DNA of 64,000 bases from sequence record PZ445429.1; one strand, written 5' to 3'. Numbering within the stretch: position 1 is the first letter of the stretch; each line of letters starts with the position of its first letter. Made by a program: the position numbers and the translations under genes. Source of the stretch: a phage. This document shows, piece by piece, positions 19,136-52,664 of this stretch. The notes under the pieces are model-generated. The model worked only from the letters and a program-made list of their open reading frames with translations, did not search any database and was not told the DNA's origin.

Positions 19136-21010
19136 TTATTTAGCGCGAATGTCCTGATGTTTCACTCGACCCATAACCTCATGTTGTTTACCTGGGTTAA
19201 ACGGACGAGCACCTGGATTTCCAAGATAGCCACAAACTCGACGAGTTACCTCAAGAGTCTCAGGATCATGGTTGCCACAAATAGGGCATTTGAAACCATC
19301 CTCAGAAGCTATAGTTTCACCCAAGAACCCACATTCCCCACAAGAGTCTACTGGAGTATTAATACCGAAGTAATGAACTTTACTTGCAGCATAGTTAATA
19401 ACCCATTCCAGTGCATCAGGGAATCGTTTCATATCCGGTAATTCCACATAGGAAATGCACCCACCAGAAGCAATAGGAGTAAAGTTAGACTCATAATCAA
19501 ACTTCACATTTGGAGCAACCTTACGTTCTACATCAAGGTGATGGGAATTAGTGTAATATCCTTTAGCCAGAATATCTTCATGCTCTGGGAAATACTCACG
19601 GTCTAGGCGACAGAAGCGATCACATAGAGATTCAGATGGTGTAGCATACAGACTATACCCTAATTGAGTCTCTTCCTTCTTCTGATCAGCACGATCACGC
19701 ATGTATTGTAGCACACGTTGAACGAACTTGATACAAGACTCAGACATTGTATCTACATCTTTACCAAACATGAGTTGCAACATTTCGTGGCAGCCAATAT
19801 ATCCTAGGGATACAGAAGCACGCTTGTAGAAATGATCAAATACATATTCATCTGGCCCCAGACGTAATCCAAAGGCTCCTGACATATAGAGGATGGGCGC
19901 AGCTTTAGCTTGAATGTATTTTAAGCGATCAACTCTCCACTCCAATGCTTTTAACGCGGTATCCACACGCAGCTCAAGCAGATCGAAGAATAGATCAATA
20001 TTTCCTTCCGCTTCGATAGCGATTCGAGGAAGGTTTACGGAAACAACGCCTAAGTTGTTACGACCAGAAGTTTCACCATCTTCCGCAGCAGCCAGGAATG
20101 AACGACAGCCCATAGAGACTTTGTAGCCCCCCGTAACTTCTACAACCTTATCATAACTGATGTAGTCAGGATACATACGTTCAGCAGTACATTTCATAGC
20201 TAACTTCTTGATATCATAGTTAACATCACCAGGTTTCATGTTTACGCCCTCACGCAAAACAAATACCAGTTTAGGGAAGATAGCTGTACGTTTATTGATA
20301 CCCAAACCATCCATACGTACTTCTAGTATTGCTTTCTGTACAAGACGTGCTTCCCAAGAAGTTCCTAGACCAAAACCAAAGGTAATAAACGGACTTTGAC
20401 CATTAGAGTTGAACATCGTATTGATTTCATACTCCAGGCCCTGACAGGCATCGTAAACTTCTTTCTCAGTCATTTCCGTAGCCATTACAGATGCTTTAGC
20501 TTCATCCTTAGTCCAGCGCTTTGCAAACGCATGATTCTTATCATAAGACTTACGAACATAAGGAGCCAATACTTCATCTAATCGGTCCACAGAAGTACCC
20601 CCATATTGATGTGAACTAACCTGAGTGATAATCTGAGCTGTGATAGCAGCCGCAGTAGTAATAGAGTTTGGTGTACTGATTTCAGCATTACCAACCTTCA
20701 TACCATTCTTCAACATATCTTCCAAAGCAACCAGGCAACAGTTAGTCATACCTAACGCAGCGTAATCAGCATCATGGAAGTGAATATCACCAATCATGTG
20801 AGCATTTCGAATCTGGATTGGCATTTCTTCCAGAATCAGATATTTACTCAATTCCCCTGCAAGCATATCCCTTTGTGTAGGGAAACGTTCTGAGGGCTTA
20901 TTGGCATTATTAAACAGCAGCTCTTCATCTGCTGAACCTTCGATAATTTCTTTGCAGTTTCGAATCAAGGACTGCATTCCTTTATACTTTAGTTCTTCAT
21001 TGCGATTCAT
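19136..21010 (-). CDS. nrdD: anaerobic ribonucleoside-triphosphate reductase (class III)
   Basis: 624 aa; C-terminal zinc ribbon CGECGF...CPICG followed by glycyl-radical motif RRVCGYLG. Confidence 0.9.
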   Translation of the reverse strand: MNRNEELKYKGMQSLIRNCKEIIEGSADEELLFNNANKPSERFPTQRDMLAGELSKYLILEEMPIQIRNAHMIGDIHFHDADYAALGMTNCCLVALEDMLKNGMKVGNAEISTPNSITTAAAITAQIITQVSSHQYGGTSVDRLDEVLAPYVRKSYDKNHAFAKRWTKDEAKASVMATEMTEKEVYDACQGLEYEINTMFNSNGQSPFITFGFGLGTSWEARLVQKAILEVRMDGLGINKRTAIFPKLVFVLREGVNMKPGDVNYDIKKLAMKCTAERMYPDYISYDKVVEVTGGYKVSMGCRSFLAAAEDGETSGRNNLGVVSVNLPRIAIEAEGNIDLFFDLLELRVDTALKALEWRVDRLKYIQAKAAPILYMSGAFGLRLGPDEYVFDHFYKRASVSLGYIGCHEMLQLMFGKDVDTMSESCIKFVQRVLQYMRDRADQKKEETQLGYSLYATPSESLCDRFCRLDREYFPEHEDILAKGYYTNSHHLDVERKVAPNVKFDYESNFTPIASGGCISYVELPDMKRFPDALEWVINYAASKVHYFGINTPVDSCGECGFLGETIASEDGFKCPICGNHDPETLEVTRRVCGYLGNPGARPFNPGKQHEVMGRVKHQDIRAK

Positions 21011-37530: not shown

Positions 37531-37555
37531 TAGTTACACGTAATCTTCGAACCAA

Positions 37556-37590: not shown

Positions 37591-37600
37591 ATTTAAGACA

Positions 37601-38267: not shown

Positions 38268-38289
38268 GATGGGCTCCTCCCCTTAATTA

Positions 38290-39285: not shown

Positions 39286-39482
39286 CTCCTAGTATATAGA
39301 AAATGTGTGTCTCTTTGATCACTCATCCATAACATATACTTTACACTACCCCAGCGAAAATGTCAAGGGGTCTTTAAAAATTGCCCCCGGATTTTTAGTG
39401 GGGTAACAATTTCTGGACCTCACCACTCACCTGCTACCCTTAAGTGCCCTGCGATTTTCCACTAAAAAGTTTAAAAATTCGA

Positions 39483-39511
39483 TTGCTTGAATGCTAAATT
39501 CTCTATATAAT
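39483..39511 (+). promoter_or_regulatory. N25-type early promoter (nadR-like operon)
   Basis: TTGCTT, 17 bp, TATAAT then TATAAATTTGAGAGAGG. Confidence 0.7.
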
Positions 39512-39541
39512 ATATTTATAAATTTGAGAGAGGAATCAAAT

Positions 39542-40597: not shown

Positions 40598-40598
40598 T

Positions 40599-41276
40599 AT
40601 GACTAACTATCTTGTAAATGACTTTAAAAACTGGAAACCTTTGGAATATCTGTGGCTGTTTATAGCAGTCGCCTTTATTAGTTTAGCAAACTATAATGGT
40701 ACAGCTCTAGATTGGGCTACTGCAATAACCAATGTGGTTTGTGTTATTCTGGTTGCAAAAGGACGTGTTTCCAACTATATTTGGGGCTTAGTGGGTGTTC
40801 TTACATACGGTATTACAGCTTTAAACGCAGATCTTTATGGTAATGCTGCACTAAACCTGCTATACTACGTTCCTATGCAGTTTTATGGAATGTACTTATG
40901 GCATAAAAATAAGCCAAGTAATCTGCCAGATGTTCCAACTAAGGTTCTGAATAAAGCCCAAGCTCTGCTGACTCTAGGGATTCTAGCAGTAGCTACTTTA
41001 GGTTACGGCAGCTTCCTTGCTACTACCGCTGATCCATTCCCAATGCTTGACGCATTTACTGCGGTTGGTAGTGTGATTGCTATGTGGCTTATGGTCAAAC
41101 AATATGCTGAACAATGGCTGATTTGGATTGTTATTAACATTGGTACTGTGTACATTTGGCTTGTAACTGCTCAATCTACAGGTGCATCTTACGCAATCCT
41201 AGCAATGTGGCTAGTATTCTTAGGCAACTCTATTCTTGGAGCTTATAAAGGATACTTTGTACGCGTTAACAAATAA
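40599..41276 (+). CDS. pnuC: PnuC-like nicotinamide riboside transporter
   Basis: ATG 40599; polytopic membrane protein with SNYIWGL motif; adjacent to nadR-like gene. Confidence 0.7.
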   Translation: MTNYLVNDFKNWKPLEYLWLFIAVAFISLANYNGTALDWATAITNVVCVILVAKGRVSNYIWGLVGVLTYGITALNADLYGNAALNLLYYVPMQFYGMYLWHKNKPSNLPDVPTKVLNKAQALLTLGILAVATLGYGSFLATTADPFPMLDAFTAVGSVIAMWLMVKQYAEQWLIWIVINIGTVYIWLVTAQSTGASYAILAMWLVFLGNSILGAYKGYFVRVNK

Positions 41277-41283
41277 AGTAGTT

Positions 41284-41310
41284 ATAGCCCTCTAAGCGAG
41301 GGCTATTATA
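41284..41310 (+). terminator. terminator-like hairpin after pnuC
   Basis: AGCCCTC-TAAGC-GAGGGCT then ATTATA; weak U-tract. Confidence 0.45.
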
Positions 41311-41323
41311 CAGAAATTTTCAC

Positions 41324-41352
41324 TTGCTTAATATAGAAAATTTCTGTATAAT
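41324..41352 (+). promoter_or_regulatory. N25-type early promoter
   Basis: TTGCTT, 17 bp, TATAAT then ATAAATTCGAGAGAGAGAGG. Confidence 0.7.
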
Positions 41353-41386
41353 ATATTTATAAATTCGAGAGAGAGAGGAATCAAAC

Positions 41387-41683
41387 ATGAAACGCATTGT
41401 ACTTGCATTGACTCTAGTATCTACTTCTGTATTTGCTGCTCCGCAACAGGAACTTTGTCAAGTTCAGGTTTGTAATAAGTTAGAACGATTTACTTTGGAT
41501 ATTTGGTCACACATTAAAGATAATATGGGTGAACAGTGTTTTGATATTGTTCTGCCAAAAGAGCAGGCTGTTCCTGGTGCTGTTCTTAGCTCAGAGTCAC
41601 GTTGGTGGCAGGGTTCTTCTATCAACCCAACTAAGAAGTCAGTGACACGTATCAAACAGGTATATCAGTGCAATGTTCAGTAA
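41387..41683 (+). CDS. secreted small protein
   Basis: 98 aa, signal peptide MKRIVLALTLVSTSVFA. Confidence 0.5.
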   Translation: MKRIVLALTLVSTSVFAAPQQELCQVQVCNKLERFTLDIWSHIKDNMGEQCFDIVLPKEQAVPGAVLSSESRWWQGSSINPTKKSVTRIKQVYQCNVQ

Positions 41684-41691
41684 AATTTCAC

Positions 41692-41720
41692 TTGCTTAAT
41701 GCCGAAATTTTCTGTATAAT
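41692..41720 (+). promoter_or_regulatory. N25-type promoter driving tRNA-Ser/tRNA-CAT
   Basis: TTGCTT, 17 bp, TATAAT; tRNA begins ~15 nt downstream. Confidence 0.7.
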
Positions 41721-41734
41721 ATATTCATAAATTT

Positions 41735-41828
41735 GGAAGATTAACCCTAAAGGTAAGGGAGCTGTTTGCTAAACAGCCAGTAACTGTGGATACACGGTGT
41801 GCCAGTTCGAATCTGGCATCTTCCTCCA
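41735..41828 (+). tRNA. tRNA-Ser (GCT), type II
   Basis: Acceptor GGAAGAT/ATCTTCC, T-arm GCCAG-TTCGAAT-CTGGC, loop TTGCTAA, long variable arm, CCA. Confidence 0.75.
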
Positions 41829-41833
41829 AATTT

Positions 41834-41911
41834 GGTTCTCAAGCTCATTTGGTATGAGCCGTCGCCTCATAAGCGAAAGGTAGGTAGGTTCGAATCCTCC
41901 GGGAGCCACCA
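41834..41911 (+). tRNA. tRNA with CAT anticodon (Met or Ile2)
   Basis: Acceptor GGTTCTC/GGGAGCC, D-stem GCTC/GAGC, loop CTCATAA, CCA. Confidence 0.65.
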
Positions 41912-41928
41912 ATTAATTAGGAGACTAT

Positions 41929-42114
41929 ATGTCTAGATTCTACGAAATGAAGAAAGCATTAGAAGAATGTCGGTGTAAGGACTGTCATGGTGGTGGTAGG
42001 CAGGATGATGCAGAACCTGGGGATATTTTCTGTAGAGAATGGGAATGTCCTACATGTAAAGGTACTGGTATCAACCCTGAATATGCAATTTGTCTAGACA
42101 TTGAGCGAGGCTAA
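41929..42114 (+). CDS. small zinc-ribbon protein
   Basis: 61 aa; CRCKDCHGG...CPTCKG. Confidence 0.45.
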   Translation: MSRFYEMKKALEECRCKDCHGGGRQDDAEPGDIFCREWECPTCKGTGINPEYAICLDIERG

Positions 42115-42454
42115 GATGGATATTTTTACTACTCCGGCAATAAACCTTTTAGGTGTTGGCTTGTTCCAAGCTACGGTGTATCGTACTGATGATTCTACTG
42201 ATGTGGTAACGTTCATCGTACCTGAGTTCTTCCTAGAAAAGTTCTTTGAAGAGTTTGAGCAGTTCCGTGAAGAACACAATGCTCATTCCGATATGGAAGA
42301 TCTAGCAGCTATGTTCCCTGTGGTTTACGGCTATATCTTTGAAGGTAATGGCCTAGATCTTAATAAATCTGAACTCGTTGAACTTAACTGGGGCATCAAT
42401 TTTGAAGTTGGCTCTCCATTTCCTCGATATTTCCAGGGTTTAGAGATTCGATAA
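42101..42454 (+). CDS. hypothetical protein
   Basis: 117-aa ORF; stop 8 nt before a tRNA. Confidence 0.5.
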   Translation: MSEAKMDIFTTPAINLLGVGLFQATVYRTDDSTDVVTFIVPEFFLEKFFEEFEQFREEHNAHSDMEDLAAMFPVVYGYIFEGNGLDLNKSELVELNWGINFEVGSPFPRYFQGLEIR

Positions 42455-42462
42455 GATTACAT

Positions 42463-42539
42463 GGGGGTGTAATCGAATTGGCATAGGTACTGGACTTAAA
42501 ATTCAGGTTTTGTGGGTTCGAATCCCACCACCCCTACCA
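42463..42539 (+). tRNA. tRNA with TAA anticodon (Leu-type) but class-I short variable arm
   Basis: Acceptor GGGGGTG/CACCCCT, T-arm GTGGG-TTCGAAT-CCCAC, loop CTTAAAA, 5-nt variable region, A73, CCA. Confidence 0.6.
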
Positions 42540-42690
42540 AATTAAGGAAATAAAATGAAAGCTAGTAAGAAAGCACTACGTAAATTTATGTACTGTCGTT
42601 TTCATAGCATCAAGACTTCAACTAATGGTACGACTTATGATCGCTATGATCCTAAGTTTGGCTTACATTCTAAATAACTGGAGAAAACAA

Positions 42691-42897
42691 ATGGCTAATC
42701 CTGAAATTACGGCACAGCGCTTTATGCTAAAAGGTATTATTGCTGAAGCAGGCGTGACACAAGAAGTGGAAGATTTCCATAAGCAGTTCCTAAATATTCT
42801 CACTCAAGCCAAAGAGCTAGGAGAGAAAGAACATGGCGCGGCTATTATGGCAATCACATTGGTTGGGCTTGATCTGGCAGAAGAATCAGGAGTTTAA
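42691..42897 (+). CDS. hypothetical small protein
   Basis: ATG 42691 preceded by GGAGAAAAC. Confidence 0.45.
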   Translation: MANPEITAQRFMLKGIIAEAGVTQEVEDFHKQFLNILTQAKELGEKEHGAAIMAITLVGLDLAEESGV

Positions 42898-42927
42898 CTC
42901 CTCCAAGCAGAAATTTTAAAAATGTAC

Positions 42928-42957
42928 TTGCCTTTTGCTTTAAATTTCTGGTATAAT
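42928..42957 (+). promoter_or_regulatory. N25-type early promoter
   Basis: TTGCCT, 18 bp, TATAAT then TATAAATTGATGAAGGAG. Confidence 0.6.
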
Positions 42958-42987
42958 AGTTATATAAATTGATGAAGGAGTTAACGA

Positions 42988-43263
42988 ATGCAAAATCGTG
43001 TTATAGCAACTGGTATTGAAAGTGCAATCTGTAAATCCTGGGAAGGCTGGGAAGGTGAGATTGAATGGCTTTATTTCTACGATGTAGAACTTCTGCCGGA
43101 AGTTAAAGCTAAATGTGTTGAAGCTGGCATGGCTCCAGATGCAAAAGCTGATATTGATATTTCAATGTCTGAACTTAAAGGTCGTGTAATTACTGTTAGT
43201 GATGAGGGCGAAGAAGTTTTCGAACTTCCATTCTCCTTAACTGTCACTCCTAAGTTCGATTAA
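42988..43263 (+). CDS. hypothetical protein
   Basis: 91-aa ORF, promoter plus RBS GAAGGAG. Confidence 0.5.
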   Translation: MQNRVIATGIESAICKSWEGWEGEIEWLYFYDVELLPEVKAKCVEAGMAPDAKADIDISMSELKGRVITVSDEGEEVFELPFSLTVTPKFD

Positions 43264-43299
43264 CTAATACAGCACTTAGCAAGTTCTTTAAAATTTGAC

Positions 43300-43328
43300 T
43301 TGCTCAGTGCCTTAAAACTTGATATAAT
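43300..43328 (+). promoter_or_regulatory. promoter driving tRNA-Tyr/Glu/Trp/Phe cluster
   Basis: TTGCTC, 17 bp, TATAAT; ~120-nt leader before first tRNA. Confidence 0.6.
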
Positions 43329-43453
43329 AGTTATCTAATTTGGAAAACATATCTGAATGAGAAGTAACTAAGCGAGTTGCTTTTAGGGGTAAAGTCAGGA
43401 TTTCCTGAAATATTCCACTTTGAGTTTAACCGACTTACTTTTCATTCAAATAT

Positions 43454-43534
43454 GGGGGATTGGCTCAGTGGCGACGGCGCCTGGCTGTAGACCGGGTATA
43501 TCACGCGGAGGTTCGAGTCCTCCATCCCCCACCA
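43454..43534 (+). tRNA. tRNA-Tyr (GTA)
   Basis: Acceptor GGGGGAT/ATCCCCC, T-arm GGAGG-TTCGAGT-CCTCC, loop CTGTAGA, 10-nt variable arm, CCA. Confidence 0.7.
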
Positions 43535-43542
43535 AAATTAAT

Positions 43543-43617
43543 GCACCTATCGTCTAATGGTTAGGACATCAGGATTTCAATCTGAGAATCGGAGTTCAAT
43601 TCTCCGTGGGTGTGCCA
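43543..43617 (+). tRNA. tRNA-Glu (TTC)
   Basis: Acceptor GCACCTA/TGGGTGT, D-stem GTCT/GGAC, loop ATTTCAA, T-loop TTCAATT, CCA. Confidence 0.7.
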
Positions 43618-43626
43618 ATTAATAAT

Positions 43627-43697
43627 TGGGGTACGCATAGGTTGCTAGTGGGCCTCCAAAACCCATGAAAAGGTTTCGAATACCTTTACCCCTGCCA
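43627..43697 (+). tRNA. tRNA-Trp-like (CCA), irregular D-arm
   Basis: T-arm AAGGT-TTCGAAT-ACCTT, 3' TACCCCT-G-CCA, loop CTCCAAA; short, U1-U72 mismatch; may be degenerate. Confidence 0.45.
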
Positions 43698-43703
43698 ATA
43701 TTT

Positions 43704-43778
43704 GCACCTTTAGCTGAGATGGATTAGCGCTTGCCTGAAGAGCTTGAGAGGTTGGATCGTTACCAACGGGGTGCACCA
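43704..43778 (+). tRNA. tRNA-Phe-like (GAA)
   Basis: Acceptor GCACCTT/GGGGTGC, D-stem GCTG/TAGC, loop CTGAAGA; two U-U mismatches in anticodon stem, non-canonical T-loop ATCGTTA. Confidence 0.5.
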
Positions 43779-43795
43779 ATTTGAAGGAGATGCTG

Positions 43796-44068
43796 ATGCA
43801 TCCTGAAAACTTCTTTATTTACTGTGCGGATAAGTCATTAAAACGCAGAATTAATAAAGTCTATCATTATCGTGCCAGTCAACAGCCTTATGTTTATGCT
43901 TTTGACGGAGATCACATCCCACTAGAACAATTGGCATGTGATTACATGGTATTGAAGAACTTTGACGAGACAAAGATCTCAAGCGTTCATAATCGACAGA
44001 ACCCGTTAACGTGGAAATATAAGAAGAAAAAGAAAGGCATCATATTTCTGAAAAATGTAGTTGCTTAA
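43796..44068 (+). CDS. hypothetical protein
   Basis: ATG 43796 six nt after AGGAG. Confidence 0.45.
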   Translation: MHPENFFIYCADKSLKRRINKVYHYRASQQPYVYAFDGDHIPLEQLACDYMVLKNFDETKISSVHNRQNPLTWKYKKKKKGIIFLKNVVA

Positions 44069-44089
44069 CCACTTAAAGTTCTGTATAAT
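44061..44089 (+). promoter_or_regulatory. N25-type early promoter
   Basis: TTGCTT (inside preceding ORF 3' end), 17 bp, TATAAT. Confidence 0.6.
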
Positions 44090-44118
44090 TATTACATAAG
44101 TTGAACTGGAGAAGCAAC

Positions 44119-44343
44119 ATGACAGAACAAGAATTGAAAGAACGTAAGCTGGTAATGCTTCGCTTACTAAACATTTTCTCTGGTATGGATGGTGGTATTG
44201 ACTTCATTCAACTACGCACTTTTGTAGAAGAAGCAGAAGGCGAGGCTATCACTAGGATTCTTAAACATATGGGTTTGTTACTAGATGCTGCTAATGTGGC
44301 TACTCAATATAAACTCAAAGATTTACCAGAGCGTGTTAAATGA
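44119..44343 (+). CDS. hypothetical protein
   Basis: ATG 44119 after RBS GGAGAAG. Confidence 0.5.
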   Translation: MTEQELKERKLVMLRLLNIFSGMDGGIDFIQLRTFVEEAEGEAITRILKHMGLLLDAANVATQYKLKDLPERVK

Positions 44344-44531
44344 AAATGTTAGTTAAATTTAAGTGTTGTGGTTCTGAACATATTTTCACTCGTTATAGAG
44401 AGTTTAAGATGTGTGAGTGTGGTAAGTCAGGCTATGATGCTGGAGATGGCTTTTATGCTAGATCTTTAGGACATTCTAAAGATCTAGAGTTTACTAATCT
44501 CGAAAAGCAAGATAAATCGACCGTTGGCTGA
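44340..44531 (+). CDS. small Cys-rich zinc-ribbon-like protein
   Basis: 63 aa, KCCGSEH...CECG; 3' end overlaps tRNA start by 14 nt. Confidence 0.45.
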   Translation: MKMLVKFKCCGSEHIFTRYREFKMCECGKSGYDAGDGFYARSLGHSKDLEFTNLEKQDKSTVG

Positions 44532-44593
44532 ATGGCTTAGGCGGAGGCCTGCAAAACCTCCTTATGTGAGTTCGAATCTCATGCGGTCGTCCA
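44518..44593 (+). tRNA. tRNA-Cys (GCA)
   Basis: Acceptor CGACCGT/GCGGTCG, T-loop TTCGAAT, loop CTGCAAA, CCA. Confidence 0.65.
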
Positions 44594-44599
44594 AATTTA

Positions 44600-44685
44600 G
44601 GGCCGTTGGCTGAATGGTTTAAGCGCCGGACTGTTAATCCGTATCCGCAAGGATAAAGTAGGTTCGACTCCTACACGGCCCGCCA
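44600..44685 (+). tRNA. tRNA-Asn-type (GTT) with unusually long variable region
   Basis: Acceptor GGGCCGT/ACGGCCC, anticodon arm CCGGA-CTGTTAA-TCCGT, 15-nt variable region with GCAA-loop hairpin, G73, CCA. Confidence 0.6.
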
Positions 44686-44712
44686 ATTTCATTAACAACT
44701 GAGGAAATAGAT

Positions 44713-44898
44713 ATGACAACTCGTGCAATTGCTCGACTAGAAGCTGATCGTGATAATCTGATTAATAATATTAAGGTTCGTGGTAATATTATTAAGGCTC
44801 TGAAAGCTGAACTTCTTGAAGAACTTCAAGGTCAAGTAGAGCGTCGTGAAGCTCTAAAAGAGGTTGAGGAAGCTATCGAAAAACTCAAGGCTGAATAA
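44713..44898 (+). CDS. hypothetical coiled-coil protein
   Basis: 61-aa ORF with RBS GAGGAAATAG. Confidence 0.45.
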   Translation: MTTRAIARLEADRDNLINNIKVRGNIIKALKAELLEELQGQVERREALKEVEEAIEKLKAE

Positions 44899-44901
44899 AT
44901 T

Positions 44902-45483
44902 ATGCACGGAATATCCTTACCCATTCCAGGGTTTGAGGAGTACTTAGTAAGTTTGGATGGGTTAGTATTTAGTATCAAATCAAACAAAATACTAACCCCA
45001 ATAACCAGTAATTACGGATACTTATCTATACGTCTCCATAAAAATGGTCAACAGAGAAATACCGGTGTACATAGGATTTTAGCATGTGCATTTAAGAAAT
45101 TACCAAGTCTAGACTCTGAACTAGAAGTTGACCATATTAACACAGACATTACTTATTGGGGTCTTAATAACTTACAAGTGCTCACAAAAGAGCAGCATCT
45201 AGAAAAGACTTTAAAAGACAAAGGATTTAGTAAACTAAACCATGATAATTGTTGTAAGGATTGTGGTAAAGCTATTTCTTTAAAAGCTGAAAAATGTCAG
45301 GAGTGCTCTTCACATAAACCAAAAGATATCTCTATAACTAAAGAAATAATCGAGGTTACAGTAAGAGAGCTAGGCTGGTCAGGTGCAGGGAGAAAGTTAA
45401 GTTATTCAGATAATGGGTTGCGTAAAAGATACACTTCTTTAGGAGGCAATCCTAAAGAACTTAAAAAGTTAAAGGTACTATAG
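44902..45483 (+). CDS. HNH homing endonuclease inside the tRNA cluster
   Basis: 193 aa; HNH core EVDHINTD...NNLQVLTKEQH plus zinc ribbon CCKDCG...CQEC; stop overlaps tRNA start. Confidence 0.7.
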   Translation: MHGISLPIPGFEEYLVSLDGLVFSIKSNKILTPITSNYGYLSIRLHKNGQQRNTGVHRILACAFKKLPSLDSELEVDHINTDITYWGLNNLQVLTKEQHLEKTLKDKGFSKLNHDNCCKDCGKAISLKAEKCQECSSHKPKDISITKEIIEVTVRELGWSGAGRKLSYSDNGLRKRYTSLGGNPKELKKLKVL

Positions 45484-45548
45484 TCTAACGGTTAGGATAC
45501 TCCCCTGTCACGGGAGAGGTAGGGTTTCGATTACCCTTAGTACCGCCA
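45474..45548 (+). tRNA. tRNA-Asp (GTC)
   Basis: Acceptor GGTACTA/TAGTACC, anticodon arm CTCCC-CTGTCAC-GGGAG, T-arm AGGGT-TTCGATT-ACCCT, CCA. Confidence 0.8.
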
Positions 45549-45554
45549 AATTAT

Positions 45555-45631
45555 ACATCCATAGCTCAATTGGTTAGAGCTACCGCCTCTTAAGCGGTAG
45601 GTTCTAGGTTCAAGTCCTAGTGGGTGTACCA
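45555..45631 (+). tRNA. tRNA-Lys (CTT)
   Basis: Acceptor ACATCCA/TGGGTGT, D-stem GCTC/GAGC, anticodon arm ACCGC-CTCTTAA-GCGGT, CCA. Confidence 0.8.
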
Positions 45632-45844
45632 AACATCAGAGCAGCGTGATGTACTGCAAAGACCCAAAGTCCGGGGTGGACTTCTTGATTCAAAGGAGCA
45701 GGCATTAATTATCATTCTAGCGTGGTGGAGAGGGGACACCAGCTTGCCGAGGGTAGAAGCTCGTTCGATTCGAGTGAAAGAATGGTTCTCGTAAATCCGC
45801 ACAAGTGATAGTAGGTTCAAGTCCTACCTAGATTGACTCATTAT
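45632..45844 (+). ncRNA. ORF-free tRNA-like region (candidate stable RNA or degenerate tRNA genes)
   Basis: 213 nt between two tRNAs; two T-arm-like hairpins (GCTCG-TTCGATT-CGAGT near 45757; GTAGG-TTCAAGT-CCTAC at 45811-45827) without a matching 5' acceptor strand. Confidence 0.3.
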
Positions 45845-45915
45845 GCGTTCGTAGTTAAAAGGTATAATTTTTGGTTGCCAACCAGAAGTTGAGGGTTCGA
45901 TTCCCTCCGACCGCA
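45845..45915 (+). tRNA. tRNA-Gly (GCC), no encoded CCA
   Basis: Acceptor GCGTTCG/CGACCGC (one mismatch), loop TTGCCAA, T-arm GAGGG-TTCGATT-CCCTC; 3' end ...A-CAA. Confidence 0.55.
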
Positions 45916-46173
45916 CAAAATCTTTGTAGGTCGCGTCACTTATAGTGGGACTACAGGGTAAACAAGGCGATGAGTTTCCGGCCGGTTCTAGTCGCTGAAA
46001 ATCCTCCCGACCAGGTAGGTGTAGGTAAACGAAAGTTTACTTATTGAGTAGGTTCCGATAGATCGGCGGGTCTATTCTGGCGTTTAAGAGAAGTCTCGCA
46101 AACTTCTTTGTCAGCCGTGGGGCTTGAACCCTCCAGGTGGCCTACGCAATAAGTAAATTTATTAAAAATTCAT
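45916..46173 (+). ncRNA. ORF-free structured region (candidate small RNA)
   Basis: ~255 nt, GC-richer than surroundings, hairpins such as GTAAAC-GAAA-GTTTAC; no ORF of 60 aa or more. Confidence 0.25.
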
Positions 46174-46202
46174 TTGCTATTTTGCTTAATTCTCTGTATA
46201 AT
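46174..46202 (+). promoter_or_regulatory. N25-type early promoter
   Basis: AAAAATTCATTTGCTAT...TATAAT. Confidence 0.7.
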
Positions 46203-46234
46203 ATATCTTATAAAGTGTTGAGAAGGAAAGCAAA

Positions 46235-46432
46235 ATGAAAAAAGTTATGTTACTATCTGTATTCTTACTCACTGGTTGCTTTAAATTTGATTCAACCATT
46301 AACAAGGAGTATGAATTTGCAAAAAATTTCTGTGGTGGAGAGAGTAAAATACAAAACTTCAGTATACACTCTACAATTCCTAGTACCATTTACTGCATAG
46401 ATGGACGGAATATTAATATTCCACCACAATAA
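46235..46432 (+). CDS. small lipoprotein
   Basis: 65 aa; lipobox LLTGC. Confidence 0.55.
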   Translation: MKKVMLLSVFLLTGCFKFDSTINKEYEFAKNFCGGESKIQNFSIHSTIPSTIYCIDGRNINIPPQ

Positions 46433-46441
46433 AAGAATATT

Positions 46442-46518
46442 CTCCGATTAGCTCAATTGGCTAGAGTACACCGTTTGGGGCGGTGGGGTTGAAGGTTCGA
46501 GTCCTTCATTGGAGACCA
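46442..46518 (+). tRNA. tRNA-Pro (TGG)
   Basis: Acceptor CTCCGAT/ATTGGAG, anticodon arm CACCG-TTTGGGG-CGGTG, T-arm GAAGG-TTCGAGT-CCTTC, CCA. Confidence 0.8.
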
Positions 46519-46524
46519 AACAAT

Positions 46525-46602
46525 TGCGGGTTAGATCTTTGGTAGAGATCGCTAGTCTCATAAGCTAGAAAGAGGTAGGTTCGATTCCTACACCCGCTTC
46601 CA
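46525..46602 (+). tRNA. tRNA with CAT anticodon (Met or Ile2), U1-U72 mismatch
   Basis: Acceptor TGCGGGT/ACCCGCT, D-stem GATC/GATC, anticodon arm CTAGT-CTCATAA-GCTAG, CCA. Confidence 0.65.
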
Positions 46603-46623
46603 ATTTAATAGAAGGATTTCGAA

Positions 46624-46788
46624 ATGAAATTATTTCGTTTAAAAGTAAGTGATCTACGTTCTAGCAAAGATCGTAAGAAGTATCCACTAGCCCATTACGG
46701 TAAAGATGAAAACGAAGTGATGGCGGAATTTGGTATTAATCATCCTTACTTAAAAGTCTACTCTATTAAAGAAGTCTATGCTAATTAA
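46624..46788 (+). CDS. small hypothetical protein (54 aa)
   Basis: Below track cutoff; RBS AAGGA; overlaps next gene start. Confidence 0.35.
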   Translation: MKLFRLKVSDLRSSKDRKKYPLAHYGKDENEVMAEFGINHPYLKVYSIKEVYAN

Positions 46789-47251
46789 TAAAGTTTTAGC
46801 TGCCTTAAACCTTCCTGATAACTTCATTATAGATGATAAGCTCATAAGAGCTTATATGAGCAAATATAACGAAATTTCGGGTAAAGAAGGTAAGTTAAAA
46901 ACTTCAGAGTTTAGATTCTGTTATCGAATGGCAGCCTTAAATCTCTTAAAGTATAAAAGGGAGCATAAAATACCTATAACGGAAGGTTTTGTATATGTAA
47001 TTGGTAATCCAGCATGGCCAGGCATGTATAAAATAGGTATGACTATAGATGTGAATGAGAGGTTAGCAAGTTATCAAACTTATTCACCTAATAGAGACTA
47101 CAAGCTATACCATTTCAGATTTTCGTCGGATAAAAGACGTACAGAGAAAGAATTACATAATCTTCTTAAAGATTATAGAGTATCTGGAGAATGGTTTGAA
47201 GTACCTGTACTAGATGCTTTTAAATTATTAGTAGAAAAATTGGATTGCTAG
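46778..47251 (+). CDS. T5orf172/GIY-YIG-like domain protein (putative endonuclease)
   Basis: 157 aa; GFVYVIGNPAWPGMYKIGMTIDVNERL; stop overlaps tRNA. Confidence 0.65.
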   Translation: MLINKVLAALNLPDNFIIDDKLIRAYMSKYNEISGKEGKLKTSEFRFCYRMAALNLLKYKREHKIPITEGFVYVIGNPAWPGMYKIGMTIDVNERLASYQTYSPNRDYKLYHFRFSSDKRRTEKELHNLLKDYRVSGEWFEVPVLDAFKLLVEKLDC

Positions 47252-47319
47252 CTCAACTGGATAAGAGTAGCGGACCTTTAATCCGTCAGTTCTGGGTTCG
47301 AATCCCAGGCAATCCACCA
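47242..47319 (+). tRNA. tRNA-Lys (TTT)
   Basis: Acceptor GGATTGC/GCAATCC, loop CCTTTAA, T-arm CTGGG-TTCGAAT-CCCAG, CCA; 5' end overlaps upstream stop codon. Confidence 0.7.
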
Positions 47320-47323
47320 AATT

Positions 47324-47397
47324 GCTCGGTTAGTTTAATGGGAGAACCCCGTCTTTACACGGCGGTTGCGATAGTTCGATTCTATCACCGAGTACCA
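47324..47397 (+). tRNA. tRNA-Val (TAC)
   Basis: Acceptor GCTCGGT/ACCGAGT, anticodon arm CCGTC-TTTACAC-GGCGG, CCA. Confidence 0.8.
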
Positions 47398-47422
47398 ATT
47401 AACTCAAAATAAGGAATTGCAA

Positions 47423-47776
47423 ATGCAATTATCAAGCAAGGTTCAAGGCTATTTCGGGCATGTAACAATGGAGTTCGCTATCTCTAAAGGTTGGGACTTC
47501 GAACAAGATCTAGCTGAGTTCTACAAAGATATTGATCTGAACGTACCATACATGGGACTCTCCACTGGTCAAGAGATCACAGAAGGCGATGTGTTCAAGG
47601 CAAGTCAAGGTGAGGTAACACCTAGTTTTGCCAAGTTCTGGTTAGGTATCACACTGAAAGAAGATGCACCAGAGGATGGTGTGGTTATGCAGAGTATGCA
47701 CTCTGGAAGCTCTGATTACCTTTTCGTTAGTGACGTTAAGGAAATACAAGAAATCGCTAAAAATGTACTTGCTTGA
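47423..47776 (+). CDS. hypothetical protein
   Basis: ATG 47423 six nt after AAGGAA. Confidence 0.5.
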   Translation: MQLSSKVQGYFGHVTMEFAISKGWDFEQDLAEFYKDIDLNVPYMGLSTGQEITEGDVFKASQGEVTPSFAKFWLGITLKEDAPEDGVVMQSMHSGSSDYLFVSDVKEIQEIAKNVLA

Positions 47777-47797
47777 TGCTTAATTTCTTGTTATAAT
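47769..47797 (+). promoter_or_regulatory. N25-type promoter driving a noncoding leader and tRNA-Ala cluster
   Basis: TTGCTT, 17 bp, TATAAT then TATAAATTGATGAGGAG. Confidence 0.7.
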
Positions 47798-48037
47798 ATT
47801 TATATAAATTGATGAGGAGAAATCCTCATCAAAGTTCACTAAGGTATTAGCTCGACCCAGGACTGGCTGCCAAAAAGCACGATCCCTACGACTCGGGAGA
47901 AGTTCTAGATTAGTCCACTAGATTCAGCGGCAACTGAATAGTGTATCGGGTTTGTGAAGAGCGGTTATCCTCTACTGGCTAATGTCTGAGGGTAATACGC
48001 ACACCGAGCTAATAGCCTTAGTAAACTTAAAGATTTT
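47798..48037 (+). ncRNA. promoter-driven 240-nt leader upstream of tRNA-Ala (candidate small RNA or processed spacer)
   Basis: N25-type promoter at 47769-47797, then hairpin TGATGAGGA-GAAAT-CCTCATCA and 220 nt without an ORF. Confidence 0.3.
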
Positions 48038-48111
48038 GGGGATATAGTTTAATGGTAGAACATCTGCTTTGCACGCAGAAGACGAGGGTTCAACTCCCTC
48101 TTTCTCCACCA
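48038..48111 (+). tRNA. tRNA-Ala (TGC)
   Basis: Acceptor GGGGATA with G3-U70, anticodon arm TCTGC-TTTGCAC-GCAGA, CCA. Confidence 0.75.
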
Positions 48112-48117
48112 AAATTC

Positions 48118-48193
48118 GGGGTCATAGGTTATTTGGTTAAACTTACTGCCTTGCAAGCAGTGGAACTCAGTTCAATTCTGAGTGACTCCACCA
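48118..48193 (+). tRNA. tRNA-Ala-like (TGC), second copy with different body
   Basis: Acceptor GGGGTCA/TGACTCC with G3-U70, anticodon arm ACTGC-CTTGCAA-GCAGT, CCA. Confidence 0.6.
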
Positions 48194-48200
48194 AACAAAT

Positions 48201-48281
48201 GGGGATGTGGCGAAATTGGCAGACGCGCTAGATTTAGGTTCTAGTCTTCGGGTGTGGGTTCGAGTCCCTCCATCCCTACCA
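48201..48281 (+). tRNA. tRNA-Leu (TAG), type II
   Basis: Acceptor GGGGATG/CATCCCT, D-arm TGGCGAAATTGGCAGACGCG, anticodon arm CTAGA-TTTAGGT-TCTAG, extended variable arm, CCA. Confidence 0.75.
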
Positions 48282-48455
48282 AACATTGGATTAACTCATG
48301 ATGAAAACTCCTATAACTGATATCTGGTTAGCTGTTAATACATTAACTAAAGAGTATGTGTTTATAGAGTATGGTCAGAGGTATGACCAAAAGATGTATA
48401 ATCTCATACTTCCAGTATCCGCTAATGAAGTTTATGATTTAATCCTGAGATCTAC

Positions 48456-48547
48456 GGAAGAGCAAATCGATAGGTGACGAAAACCGCTTGGAAAGTGGCT
48501 GACTTGTTAAAGCAGGCTTGAGAGTTCGAATCTCTCTTCTTCCGCCA
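48456..48547 (+). tRNA. tRNA-Ser (GGA), type II
   Basis: Acceptor GGAAGAG/TTCTTCC, loop TTGGAAA, ~20-nt variable arm, T-arm GAGAG-TTCGAAT-CTCTC, CCA. Confidence 0.6.
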
Positions 48548-48554
48548 AACAACT

Positions 48555-48644
48555 GGAAGGTAGGACATAGTGGTATGTAACAGGTCTTGAAAACCTGCCC
48601 GCTGTAGCGATATGGTGATGGTTCGACTCCATTACCTTCCTCCA
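48555..48644 (+). tRNA. tRNA-Ser (TGA), type II
   Basis: Acceptor GGAAGGT/ACCTTCC, anticodon arm CAGGT-CTTGAAA-ACCTG, long variable arm with CGC/GCG stem, CCA. Confidence 0.75.
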
Positions 48645-48660
48645 ACTAATAAGGAAAAAT

Positions 48661-48996
48661 ATGAGTAGTTATACTAAAATGTATATTGCAGTACTAGATG
48701 AAGCACCCGATTATATGGTACCAACTCTAGTTGCTCACTCTGTTTTAAACGCTCATATTAAGTTTCAGGATGACCCTAGGTATGGGGATTGGCTTGATAA
48801 TTCTTTTAAGAAAGTAATTCTTAGGGTTAATAAAAAAGAATTTAAAAAGATCATATCTACCCTAGAGTGTTACGTAGGTTTTGAGCGCACTATCTGTAAT
48901 GCAGAACCTAGCTGTTTAGTAGTTATGCCTATGAGTTCTGTTGATATGCCAAATGTTTTAAAATTTGCTAGACTTTGGAAACCTAAAGATGTTTAG
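48661..48996 (+). CDS. hypothetical protein
   Basis: 111-aa ORF with RBS AAGGAAAAAT. Confidence 0.5.
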   Translation: MSSYTKMYIAVLDEAPDYMVPTLVAHSVLNAHIKFQDDPRYGDWLDNSFKKVILRVNKKEFKKIISTLECYVGFERTICNAEPSCLVVMPMSSVDMPNVLKFARLWKPKDV

Positions 48997-49384
48997 CAAC
49001 TAGTATTCTTGAAGTATGCCGGAATCGGTAGACGGGGCTTCCTAAAGGGCGTAAGGGGAACATCCACTCCTCATAAGATACCCGAAAACGAGGCTGAGAT
49101 AAATGGTCTATCTCATGAAGGTTCAAGTCCTTCTGCTTCTTGATATTCAATGGCTCAAAGTGTAACGGTGCTATTTGATGTTCTTAGTAAGACTTTCCCG
49201 ACATGCGTTCGGGAGTAAGCTGCTAAGGCTAGAGTAGAAGAGTTTCGGAGAGCCGCCACAATTGAGTATTACTAGAGAGCATTCGCAAGAAAGAATCAGG
49301 AGAAAGACCTGTGCGCAGAATGACTAACTTTGGTACCTTAGACGGCCAAATGGAGGACTGATCATCCCCTAATAGTATTCAATT
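48997..49384 (+). ncRNA. ORF-free tRNA-like region
   Basis: ~390 nt; tRNA D-arm-like GAATCGGTAGACG at 49022-49034 and T-arm GAAGG-TTCAAGT-CCTTC at 49117-49133 but no canonical cloverleaf. Confidence 0.3.
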
Positions 49385-49461
49385 GTGGCTATATCATAAT
49401 TGGTTAATGATCCTGATTGTGAATCAGGCCTATGTGGATTCGAATTCCACTAGCCACCCCA
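49385..49461 (+). tRNA. tRNA-His (GTG)
   Basis: Acceptor GTGGCTA/TAGCCAC, anticodon arm CCTGA-TTGTGAA-TCAGG, C73, CCA. Confidence 0.8.
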
Positions 49462-49467
49462 AATATT

Positions 49468-49542
49468 GCGTCCTTATTTCAACGGAAAGAATGTAAAGCT
49501 ACGAACTTTACGATCGGGGTTCGATTCCCTGAGGATGCACCA
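49468..49542 (+). tRNA. tRNA-Arg (ACG)
   Basis: Acceptor GCGTCCT/AGGATGC, anticodon arm TAAAG-CTACGAA-CTTTA, CCA. Confidence 0.75.
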
Positions 49543-49566
49543 ATTAACTTAAACAGGAAATAAAAT

Positions 49567-49767
49567 ATGGCTGATTTCTGCAAAGAATGCTCTATTGATA
49601 TGTGGGGAAGAGATACTGGTGATCTTTCTGGTCTGATTACAGAAGCCGAAGTTAAAGAAGGCTATGGTGCCGTTGTAATCTGTGAAGGTTGTGGCATTAT
49701 CCGTGTTGATCATAATGGTAAACGTCTAGAAGAGCCTGATCCAATCGCCACGGTTTCTGTAGAATAA
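49567..49767 (+). CDS. small Cys-rich protein
   Basis: 66 aa; CKEC...CEGCG. Confidence 0.45.
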   Translation: MADFCKECSIDMWGRDTGDLSGLITEAEVKEGYGAVVICEGCGIIRVDHNGKRLEEPDPIATVSVE

Positions 49768-49775
49768 AAAATTAT

Positions 49776-49851
49776 TGGAGTGTAGCTCAACTGGCAGAGC
49801 GACGGTTTCTGACACCGTAGGTTTCTAGTTCGATCCTAGACATTCCAGCCA
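49776..49851 (+). tRNA. tRNA-Gln (CTG)
   Basis: Acceptor TGGAGTG/CATTCCA (U1-A72), anticodon arm ACGGT-TTCTGAC-ACCGT, G73, CCA. Confidence 0.75.
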
Positions 49852-49857
49852 AACAAT

Positions 49858-49935
49858 TGGGGATTAGCTTAGCTTGGCCTAAAGCTTCGGCCTTTGAAGT
49901 CGAGATCATTGGTTCAAATCCAATATCCCCTGCCA
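49858..49935 (+). tRNA. tRNA-Gln (TTG)
   Basis: Acceptor TGGGGAT/ATCCCCT (U1-U72), anticodon arm TCGGC-CTTTGAA-GTCGA, G73, CCA. Confidence 0.7.
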
Positions 49936-49943
49936 AACAATAA

Positions 49944-50019
49944 GCGGTTAAGCACACGGGTTGTGCCGCAGGCCTTCCAAGCCCCGCTGAGTAGGGTTCG
50001 ATTCCCTCTAGCCGCTCCA
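49944..50019 (+). tRNA. tRNA-Gly-like (TCC), weak anticodon stem
   Basis: Acceptor GCGGTTA/TAGCCGC, loop CTTCCAA, T-loop TTCGATT, U73, CCA; only 3 bp in anticodon stem. Confidence 0.5.
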
Positions 50020-50036
50020 ACTTTAAGGAAACATTT

Positions 50037-50258
50037 ATGCACGTTTTTGAGTTTCGTGATAAAAGTAACAATAAACGAGTTATTGTTATTGGAGAAACAT
50101 ACCTAGCATACGAACAAACTGACGGCTCTGTTATCTTGAATGATGAGAAAGCAAATTTTAGCTTTTATCCAGAAGAACCTTATGAAGAGTTTCGTACTAA
50201 GTTTCTTTTACCAGACTGGCTAGCAGTAGCCGAGCAACTAGAATCCGAAGATGGCTGA
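50037..50258 (+). CDS. hypothetical protein
   Basis: 73-aa ORF with RBS AAGGAAAC. Confidence 0.45.
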   Translation: MHVFEFRDKSNNKRVIVIGETYLAYEQTDGSVILNDEKANFSFYPEEPYEEFRTKFLLPDWLAVAEQLESEDG

Positions 50259-50415
50259 TAACCTGAAACTAAAGGTTGACAAACAAAAGAAACGTGTAGA
50301 GATTGAGCTTGGTGACGAACGCCTAGCACTATCCTTCGAGTTTCTTCAGCAGTTGGCGATGACAGTAATGTCTGATAAGTCTCCTGTATTTGAAAAAGAA
50401 ATCCCGTTGAAATGA
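50251..50415 (+). CDS. small hypothetical protein (54 aa)
   Basis: Below track cutoff; overlaps previous stop; weak. Confidence 0.3.
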   Translation: MADNLKLKVDKQKKRVEIELGDERLALSFEFLQQLAMTVMSDKSPVFEKEIPLK

Positions 50416-50425
50416 CGGGTTTATT

Positions 50426-50500
50426 GCTCCTAAAGCATTGCTGGCGATGCAGTTGCCTTGTAAGCATCTGAACTGGGTTCGACTCCTGGTGGGAGCACCA
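50426..50500 (+). tRNA. tRNA-Thr (TGT)
   Basis: Acceptor GCTCCTA/TGGGAGC, D-stem GCAT/ATGC, loop CTTGTAA, CCA. Confidence 0.7.
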
Positions 50501-50515
50501 AATTTAAAAATTCAT

Positions 50516-50544
50516 TTGCCTTCTCTCTTATTTCTTGTTATAAT
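50516..50544 (+). promoter_or_regulatory. N25-type early promoter
   Basis: TTGCCT, 17 bp, TATAAT then TATAAATTAATGAGAGGG. Confidence 0.7.
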
Positions 50545-50574
50545 ATTTATATAAATTAATGAGAGGGAAACCAA

Positions 50575-50868
50575 ATGAAACGTTATCTTTCTGTCGTATT
50601 CCAAACGGGTGGTCAACGCTATACTTACGAATTTCCTGAGTCTTGGAAAATTAAAGAAGGTGATCAAGTTGTTGTATTAACACCTCGTGAAGGCTTCAAA
50701 GTAGTAACGGTTAAACAAGTCTTTCCAAAAGATCACGAACCATCTAAGTCTATTCAGTACAAGATGATTCACGGTCTGGTACGAAAAGTACCTAGAACAG
50801 AAGTCGAAGTAGATAAAACTGGGGAAGCTAAATACCAGTATACTTCTTACTTGGATGAAATGATGTAA
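50575..50868 (+). CDS. hypothetical protein
   Basis: 97-aa ORF, promoter plus RBS GAGAGGGAAACC. Confidence 0.5.
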   Translation: MKRYLSVVFQTGGQRYTYEFPESWKIKEGDQVVVLTPREGFKVVTVKQVFPKDHEPSKSIQYKMIHGLVRKVPRTEVEVDKTGEAKYQYTSYLDEMM

Positions 50869-50869
50869 T

Positions 50870-50945
50870 GCTCTGATAGTTCAACAGGTTAGAACAGGCG
50901 ACCGATAATCGTCAAATCTTGGTTCGATCCCAAGTCGGAGTACCA
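50870..50945 (+). tRNA. tRNA-Ile (GAT)
   Basis: Acceptor GCTCTGA/TCGGAGT, anticodon arm GGCGA-CCGATAA-TCGTC, T-arm CTTGG-TTCGATC-CCAAG, CCA. Confidence 0.7.
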
Positions 50946-50951
50946 AATTAT

Positions 50952-51027
50952 AGTTAGTTGGCAGAGTGGTTATGCACCTCCTTCATACGGAGCGACTACA
51001 GTGGTTCAACTCCACTACTAACTACCA
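50952..51027 (+). tRNA. tRNA with CAT anticodon (third copy)
   Basis: Acceptor AGTTAGT/ACTAACT, loop TTCATAC, T-arm AGTGG-TTCAACT-CCACT, CCA. Confidence 0.55.
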
Positions 51028-51210
51028 AAGATAAGATCAGGCCTTTGTGCCAGATCTCTGTGTTTATTAAACTGAATGGGACTATCAATCCACAAGCCGG
51101 ACTACGAGCGATTATCGGGTATTCACTTAATAAACAGCCTGCCTCCCAGTTTTTATCTTGCTTCTGGGTTAACAAAAAGCTGAGCCAAATTCTAACATCA
51201 GGGAGATCTA

Positions 51211-51579
51211 ATGAAAGCATATCAAAGTCTTAAGTCTGGCGTAATTAACCTTGTTCATGATAACCAGATCATTCAGCTATATTCTAAAGATGGTGAACTT
51301 AAACAAAAGGTTCTAGTTGAAGATCTAGAGGATATCACACCTCATTTTGACCCTGAGGCCTTCCGCATTGTAGATGTAGAAGTGGTTCCTCAAGTCGAGG
51401 GTGGTCAGCACCTAAATGTCAATGTGTTAAGCCGTGATCAGCTTTTGGATGCACAGAAACATCCTGAAAAATATCCTCAGTTGACCATCCGTGTCTCTGG
51501 CTATGCTGTTCGATTTAACGCATTGACGCGTGAACAACAGAACGACGTTATTAGTCGTACATTTACTCAGGCGATATAA
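51211..51579 (+). CDS. GrcA/YfiD-like autonomous glycyl-radical cofactor protein
   Basis: 122 aa; C-terminus [12 protein letters not shown]...[37 protein letters not shown] matches the glycyl-radical spare-part domain (RVSGY). Confidence 0.75.
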
Positions 51580-51660: not shown

Positions 51661-51960
51661 GTGGATCGAGCATTAAGACGCCATCACCGGCAACGTGTGA
51701 AAAACAATCGCAAGAAGTATTGGACAGTCTTCCCACACGAAGAAAGTCCTAAGCGGTTAGGCATTATCACTACCACTCCTTGCATCTGTTCTTGTTGGAT
51801 GTGTGGGAATCCTCGCAAATACTATAAGAATAGTAAAGCAGGCATGAAAATCTCGGAGATTAAAAAGATGGATGCAATGATTATGGGCATCACCTTTACA
51901 GGTGGTATCTCTGATGAATTCGACGGTTTTGTAAATCAGGATATTGTCGAAATTATCTAA
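51661..51960 (+). CDS. hypothetical Cys-containing protein
   Basis: GTG start after AGGAGAAATG; terminator downstream. Confidence 0.4.
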   Translation: MDRALRRHHRQRVKNNRKKYWTVFPHEESPKRLGIITTTPCICSCWMCGNPRKYYKNSKAGMKISEIKKMDAMIMGITFTGGISDEFDGFVNQDIVEII

Positions 51961-52268: not shown

Positions 52269-52664
52269 ATGAGCCGTACATATCGTAAACAATCTGGTGA
52301 TCGTCACTGGCGTGATGCACATCGTTCTACTTATAATTTTCATAGCACTAATATCCGTATTCCGTATATCTACACGGATAGGGATGGTAAGCAGTGGAAA
52401 TATTATCAAGTTCGATCCAATGAAGCATGGGCTAAAACTTGGGATGAAATTGAGAAGGAGATTCAGGAAAATATCATTCGTAACGAGAAGAAAGATGGGC
52501 ACTGGTGGGATTCTATTAGTAGAAGTGTTAAGTGGCATTCTAACAAAATGGTTCGTCAGGGAAACCGTCGTGAACTTCACCGTGTGATGAAAGATCCAGA
52601 AAATTACGACTATAATCGTGATCATGACCTGCGTAAGCGTGGGTTATGGTGGGTTTATGACTAA
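52269..52664 (+). CDS. hypothetical basic Trp-rich protein
   Basis: 131-aa ORF with RBS ATGGAGGTAAT. Confidence 0.5.
   Translation: MSRTYRKQSGDRHWRDAHRSTYNFHSTNIRIPYIYTDRDGKQWKYYQVRSNEAWAKTWDEIEKEIQENIIRNEKKDGHWWDSISRSVKWHSNKMVRQGNRRELHRVMKDPENYDYNRDHDLRKRGLWWVYD

Follow-up and report, generated by a model that had tools for sequence, protein, structure and literature searches.

Only two spare-part proteins have been validated biochemically: YfiD (GrcA) of Escherichia coli and Y06I, the vs.6 product of phage T4 (PMC8683613; PMC13450708). Both proteins reactivate O2-fragmented pyruvate formate-lyase (PFL) once PFL-AE has installed the radical (PMC8683613). Y06I was shown in 2001 (Wagner et al., BBRC 285:456), so that PFL spare parts encoded by phages have been a known concept for 25 years. 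Experiments on, or discussion of, a T5-type GrcA were not found in the literature that we searched.

Here we analyze a gene of this type located at 51211..51579 on the plus strand of the window, by which we mean the whole stretch of 64,000 nucleotides of phage DNA that was studied. The source phage is T5-like (Demerecviridae, Epseptimavirus). Across the 2-kb neighborhood of the gene, identity is 99.5% with Salmonella phage SE3 and 96–99% with many other T5-like phages of Salmonella and Escherichia. The family, its mechanism and its phage copies are established and the exact gene occurs in hundreds of T5-like records; the gene is real but ordinary.

A GrcA-like gene and its product

The ORF at 51211..51579 (+) begins with ATG and comprises 122 codons plus a stop; its translation is the one quoted in the first-pass annotation. 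A Shine-Dalgarno-like AGGGAG (51200..51205, +) lies 5 nt 5' of the ATG, and its T5 counterpart is AGGAGATCTAATG. The 122-residue product is the ortholog of T5.056 and a homolog of T4 vs.6 (Y06I), and its match to GrcA and PFL is far beyond chance. The best phmmer match in the PDB is an NMR structure of E. coli YfiD/GrcA (6owr, E 2.7e-29, query residues 50–121 to chain residues 53–126), followed by PflB (1h16/1cm5, E 1.9e-26), to which residues 61–121 align with PflB 698–758 without a gap. The Pfam Gly_radical model (PF01228) matches residues 62–103 with E 4.7e-18, and its 66.1 bits lie well above the gathering score of 22.2. PHROG 1209, a profile of 121 positions, is matched over the full length of the protein (query 1–122, E 6.8e-47).

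The C-terminal glycyl-radical domain (residues 62–122; 51394..51576, +) is collinear with PflB 698–759, TdcE and GrcA to the C-terminus. The first-pass annotation had proposed such collinearity with E. coli GrcA over about 60 C-terminal residues, together with a PFL-type RVSGY radical site. Both proposals stood: the last 61 residues align to the very C-terminus of 6owr, and the sequence read directly at residues 94–100 (51490..51510, +) is RVSGYAV. Alignment to the C-termini of GrcA and PFL also showed that the radical glycine is kept. This residue, Gly97 (codon 51499–51501, +), is equivalent to PflB G734 and GrcA G102 and is the predicted radical site. The RVSGYAV loop is unchanged across 54 homologs, and all residues that are invariant in functional GrcAs and PFL, Gly97 and the loop included, are kept in the phage protein. 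The product has two of the features by which the GrcA class is recognized, being a small stand-alone protein (about 120–130 amino acids in this class) with a C-terminal Gly_radical domain and carrying a PFL-type loop in 60 C-terminal residues that are collinear with PFL 698–759. It contains no cysteine.

The top NCBIfam models for the phage protein are GrcA models, which residues 54–121 alone match. The scores lie below the equivalog cut-offs (TIGR04365, 118.8 versus 170 bits; GrcA3, 115.9 versus 158; GrcA2, 90.2 versus 145) because the N-terminal half is divergent, and this shortfall concerns the bacterial equivalog model rather than the functional class. A catalytic formate C-acetyltransferase was considered and rejected. 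Such an enzyme is defined by a ten-stranded barrel, about 750 amino acids and Cys418/Cys419, all absent from the phage protein, and TIGR01255 is matched only at positions 683–743 of 744, where the score of 84 bits falls far short of the cut-off (994). With only 122 residues and no cysteine, the protein cannot be a catalytic lyase by itself, and the label “pyruvate formate-lyase” is therefore wrong in the catalytic sense.

Homologs were found by tblastn in 1,582 phage records, 1,422 of which cover at least 80% of the query. About 437 records hold T5-like copies that are at least 80% identical. The other ~1,100 hold more distant homologs, mostly from T4-like phages (50–58% identity over the full length) and also from Aeromonas phages. 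A large protein search added homologs from jumbo phages (~350 kb) and Vibrio phages, and then the bacterial GrcAs. Many phage records carry the correct name, “autonomous glycyl radical cofactor.” Elsewhere in GenBank the gene is called a pyruvate formate-lyase, a 2-ketobutyrate formate-lyase, a ribonucleotide reductase subunit or an acetyltransferase-related protein, and it has also been deposited as a truncated ORF of 67 amino acids. One genome paper places it among host-lysis functions (PMC12568117). Given this inconsistent naming, a clear statement of identity has curation value.

Genome setting and probable expression

The window contains 28 tRNA genes within 35369–51027 (ARAGORN). The last two, tRNA-Ile(gat) and tRNA-Met(cat), occupy 50870..51027 (+) directly 5' of the GrcA-like gene, with the end of tRNA-Met 183 nt before the ATG. 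The location in the tRNA region, noted at the first pass, is thus borne out, with the gene following the last member of the cluster. A sigma-70-like promoter with an extended TG (TTGCCT-17-TATAAT; 50516..50544, +) matches the consensus at 10 of 12 positions, in a region where the number of promoter-like sites (five) shows no excess over shuffled sequences (5.0). The site is syntenic with P11 of T5, where the gene order is P11, T5.058, tRNA-Ile, tRNA-Met and T5.056. Because of this synteny, we infer that the GrcA-like gene is cotranscribed with the two tRNAs: the promoter at 50516–50544 probably drives an ORF at 50575–50868, tRNA-Ile, tRNA-Met and the GrcA-like gene as one unit. Synteny is likewise what suggests the promoter assignment and an early timing of expression.

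Several other features of the region were observed. Between tRNA-Met and the start of the GrcA-like gene (51028–51210) lies an insertion of ~170 nt, flanked on both sides by AGATC; the corresponding gap in T5 is 13 nt. The 183-nt gap 5' of the gene gave no Rfam match and no extra folding energy (z = +0.82) when examined for structured RNA. ARAGORN also places a “tRNA-SeC” (anticodon TCA; 35369–35442) at the beginning of the tRNA region; it could be opal-suppressor-like or degenerate. A basic ORF of 99 amino acids without a Pfam match lies 3' of the gene (51661–51960) and contains a CICSCWMC motif at 51781. Proteins of the DUF7295 and DUF7293 families flank the locus (52269–52664 and 50251–50415, respectively); they are the only neighbors recognized by Pfam, which revealed no metabolic neighbor hinting at an operon-level function. 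Farther away, Pfam matches identify a Sir2-family protein (17529–18380, −) and a HAD_SAK_2 domain protein (16710–17249, −) near nrdD, as well as a proteasome-subunit-like protein (28418–28996, +).

The N-terminal half and the evolution of the gene

The N-terminal half (residues 1–61; 51211..51393, +) appears to be a diverged counterpart of the N-terminal region of GrcA. Alignments to bacterial GrcAs at the BLASTP level span only the C-terminal ~58% of the query, and a direct hhalign comparison of the T5-type and bacterial N-terminal halves aligned the last 13 columns only (Prob 22.7%, E 9.2e-4). The N-terminal halves of other phage-type proteins provide a bridge: they align with the T5-type half over 54 columns (Prob 95.8%, E 7.6e-9) and with bacterial GrcA over the full length (Prob 99.3%, E 1.1e-20). 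Through these intermediate phage sequences, the T5-type N-terminal half is linked to GrcA as a probable, strongly diverged homolog. Since the direct alignment covers only 13 columns, docking could differ from that of YfiD.

The AF2 models of the phage protein and of a bacterial GrcA from Pantoea (P0100) share one layout. In both models, a β-rich N-terminal half (pLDDT 82–90; 82–89 in the phage protein) is followed by a linker, a β-hairpin tipped by the glycine and, last, a helix at the C-terminus; confidence is low for the linker over the EGGQHLNV strand in both proteins. A fold specific to the phage N-terminal half was considered and rejected, as AF2 predicts the same β-rich half for the bacterial protein. 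A Foldseek search with the phage model returned YfiD 6owr and PFL 1cm5/2pfl as the only significant PDB matches, and no credible PDB match was found for the N-terminal half. By NMR, residues 1–60 of YfiD are disordered, yet without them YfiD neither binds cleaved PFL tightly nor receives the radical efficiently (PMC8683613). Set against this disorder, the confident β-structure in the AF2 models raises the idea that the N-terminal half may fold upon binding to damaged PFL.

Comparison of the phage gene with T5.056 revealed 47 nucleotide differences, 35 of which fall at third codon positions. The dN/dS ratio is 0.07 for the whole gene, 0.10 for the N-terminal half and 0.026 for the C-terminal half. 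By these sequence comparisons, the gene is under strong purifying selection and is real and functional, and both of its halves matter.

At the DNA level, the best E. coli matches to the phage gene are tdcE and pflB. Recent capture from the host was nonetheless rejected as an origin: the gene shares no more than ~75% of its DNA sequence with E. coli pflB, tdcE and grcA, and this over the C-terminal half only, the GC content fits the phage (41% for the phage gene versus 48% for the E. coli GrcA gene), and the product is most closely related to other phage proteins. The radical domains of the family appear mosaic. In its C-terminal half, T4 Vs.6 reaches 95% identity with E. coli GrcA, whereas the T5-type C-terminal half is nearest to TdcE (84%); even so, the two phage proteins share the N-terminus MKAYQ. 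In several database proteins, a PflB-like C-terminal half is joined to a GrcA N-terminal half. This mosaicism suggests that grcA, pflB, tdcE and the phage copies have undergone gene conversion with one another, or that assemblies are chimeric.

Proposed activation, client enzymes and mechanism

The window also encodes a T4/E. coli-type NrdD, a class III ribonucleotide reductase (19136..21010, −), identified by the Pfam NRDD model (E 3.3e-172) and by its match to T4 NrdD 1h78 (E 4.8e-176). The first-pass annotation had placed the GrcA-like gene well apart from this reductase, and the distance proves to be 30.2 kb. The loop of NrdD reads RVCGYLG, and the protein ends ...TRRVCGYLGNPGARPF... Class I NrdA and NrdB are encoded in the window as well (22423–24813 and 25436–26581). 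E. coli PFL-AE installs the radical on the peptide RVSGYAV and not on RVCGYLG (PMC13450708), so the sequence of the glycine loop affects which activase acts.

We looked for a phage activase using tblastn with E. coli PflA and a scan for CxxxCxxC. No credible PflA- or NrdG-like radical-SAM activase was found in the 64-kb window or in the remaining 51 kb of the genome of SE3, the phage with 99.5% identity. The only CxxxCxxC motif in the window is CICSCWMC at 51781; it belongs to the 99-residue ORF described above, which lacks a Pfam match and is no credible activase. In view of this absence, the GrcA-like protein would have to use host PflA, and the phage NrdD would depend on host NrdG.

The reading that we favor, and consider likely, is that the phage protein is a spare part that replaces the O2-cleaved radical domain of host PflB and/or TdcE after activation by PflA. 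It is favored because the protein is homologous over its full length to the validated T4 Y06I and apparently also to the validated YfiD, and keeps RVSGYAV exactly. A GrcA-like spare part for O2-cleaved host PFL, as the first-pass annotation had suggested, is thus what this homology predicts.

In the proposed mechanism, the gene would be transcribed as part of the early unit in the tRNA region. When the host ferments, its radical-SAM activase PflA would take a hydrogen from Gly97 within RVSGYAV, and the C-terminal domain of 60 residues would fill the place of the PFL radical domain that O2 cleaves at Gly734. The target would be PflB and probably its paralog TdcE too. The radical on Gly97 would then be handed to Cys419 of the enzyme, which could again turn pyruvate into acetyl-CoA plus formate. 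By analogy with YfiD, the N-terminal half probably aids docking onto the damaged enzyme. The phage would gain a continued flow of fermentative ATP and acetyl-CoA during oxygen fluctuations, which might sustain anaerobic metabolism in the gut. More speculatively, formate might be upheld as the reductant of the phage NrdD. The NrdD of E. coli uses formate as its hydrogen donor (Mulliez et al. 1995, in PMC13450708). As the phage enzyme is of the T4/E. coli type, a link from PFL through formate to anaerobic dNTP supply is plausible, albeit wholly inferential.

A broader version of this proposal would see more in the T5-type protein than a duplicate of the host's repair part and would join two glycyl radical enzymes into one circuit, in which the GrcA-like protein keeps PflB or TdcE active as O2 fluctuates, their formate serves the phage NrdD, host activases install both radicals, and the N-terminal half and tail may shift the choice of clients. 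We regard this full circuit as unlikely. GrcA is found alongside NrdD in the present T5-like phage and in T4, and several unrelated lineages of virulent enterobacterial phages have a GrcA homolog. This pattern hints that phages in low-oxygen habitats are limited in their growth by the supply of fermentative formate and ATP.

When the last 62 residues are compared, the phage protein shows its highest identity with TdcE (84%), ahead of GrcA (79%) and PflB (76%), all from E. coli, and of T4 Vs.6 (76%); T4 Vs.6 and E. coli GrcA are 95% identical to each other over the same span. The tail that follows the glycine in the T5-type protein is nearer to TdcE than to PflB or GrcA, which leaves the preferred client uncertain. 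These identities, the almost exact match of a 21-residue tail to TdcE and the ranking of tdcE and pflB as best DNA matches would fit a spare part devoted mainly to TdcE, the 2-ketobutyrate formate-lyase, rather than to PflB. Such a protein would keep threonine/2-ketobutyrate fermentation going, and with it propionyl-CoA and ATP. The differences, however, come down to a few residues of a domain that is very conserved, and the DAQ and DVISRTFT features are common to the GrcAs of jumbo phages and may instead mark a phage lineage. Moreover, PflB is the abundant enzyme in fermentation. A role mainly at TdcE is therefore quite improbable, and as TdcE is a PFL paralog activated by PflA, it would refine the favored explanation rather than provide a separate mechanism. 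The diverged but constrained N-terminal half and the TdcE-like tail might also give the phage protein other clients than host GrcA has, such as TdcE or PFL that is undamaged and non-activated. With these two features, the T5-type protein would offer a cheap third test case for N-terminal recognition of damaged PFL.

The protein could instead act as a decoy or inhibitor that soaks up host PflA or blocks PFL, so that pyruvate is redirected or host fermentation is shut down. Early phage genes often remodel host metabolism. In addition, the N-terminal half, which governs docking and activation in YfiD (PMC8683613), has strongly diverged from that of bacterial GrcA. An inhibitory role sits poorly with the conservation of the invariant residues, Gly97 among them, and with the dN/dS ratio of 0.026 in the C-terminal half. 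Furthermore, the T4 homolog, which has the same phage-type N-terminus (MKAYQ...), restores activity and does not block it (PMC8683613). We consider inhibition very improbable.

Repair of the class III NrdD of phage or host, which the first-pass annotation had entertained as a second option, is scarcely credible: the phage does encode NrdD without a detectable activase, and the same O2 cleavage hits all glycyl radical enzymes, making other spare parts conceivable (PMC8683613), but BLASTP of the phage protein against the NrdD of the window gives E = 16 with the radical sites unaligned, NrdD has, beyond its RVCGYLG loop, another kind of C-terminus, which carries a zinc-type Cys cluster, PFL-AE discriminates against that loop in peptides (PMC13450708), and the phage protein is 76–84% identical to formate-lyase termini. 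The protein was likewise rejected as an NrdD radical domain in its own right, having neither an RVCGYLG-type loop nor similarity to the NrdD C-terminus.

Comparison with known systems

The phage protein resembles the C-terminal radical domain of PflB and TdcE, with 76–84% identity over the last 62 residues and an ungapped alignment to the C-terminus. Unlike these enzymes, it lacks the barrel of ~700 residues and the catalytic Cys418/Cys419. It shares with E. coli GrcA/YfiD (P68066; 6owr; TIGR04365/IPR011140) the design of a stand-alone protein of ~125 amino acids that ends in a 60-residue copy of the PFL radical domain, RVSGYAV included. The two differ in that the present gene is phage-encoded, AT-richer and probably transcribed with tRNAs, not from the host's own grcA promoter.

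Among phage proteins, T4 Vs.6 (Y06I), whose annotation reads “autonomous glycyl radical cofactor GrcA,” is similar in size (120 versus 122 amino acids) and belongs to the same PHROG 1209. Both proteins have the N-terminus MKAYQ.L and a DPExF motif; identity over the full length is 58%, and two blocks of 11 and 20 residues are identical. Like the present phage, T4 is virulent, infects enterobacteria and has an NrdD gene as well. The middle of the N-terminal half differs between the two proteins and contains indels, and the present gene follows the tRNA cluster, whereas T4 vs.6 lies in the vs/regB block. T4 has its own nrdG, whereas our searches detected no activase in the present phage lineage. 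Activity has been shown for the T4 protein, whereas the function of the present protein is predicted from its sequence.

The closest counterpart is T5.056. Its annotation is “putative acetyltransferase-related protein” (IPR001150), and it differs from the present gene, which is preceded by the ~170-nt insertion. The two are orthologs that encode proteins of equal length, with 92% amino acid and 87% nucleotide identity, and they occupy the same place after tRNA-Ile and tRNA-Met.
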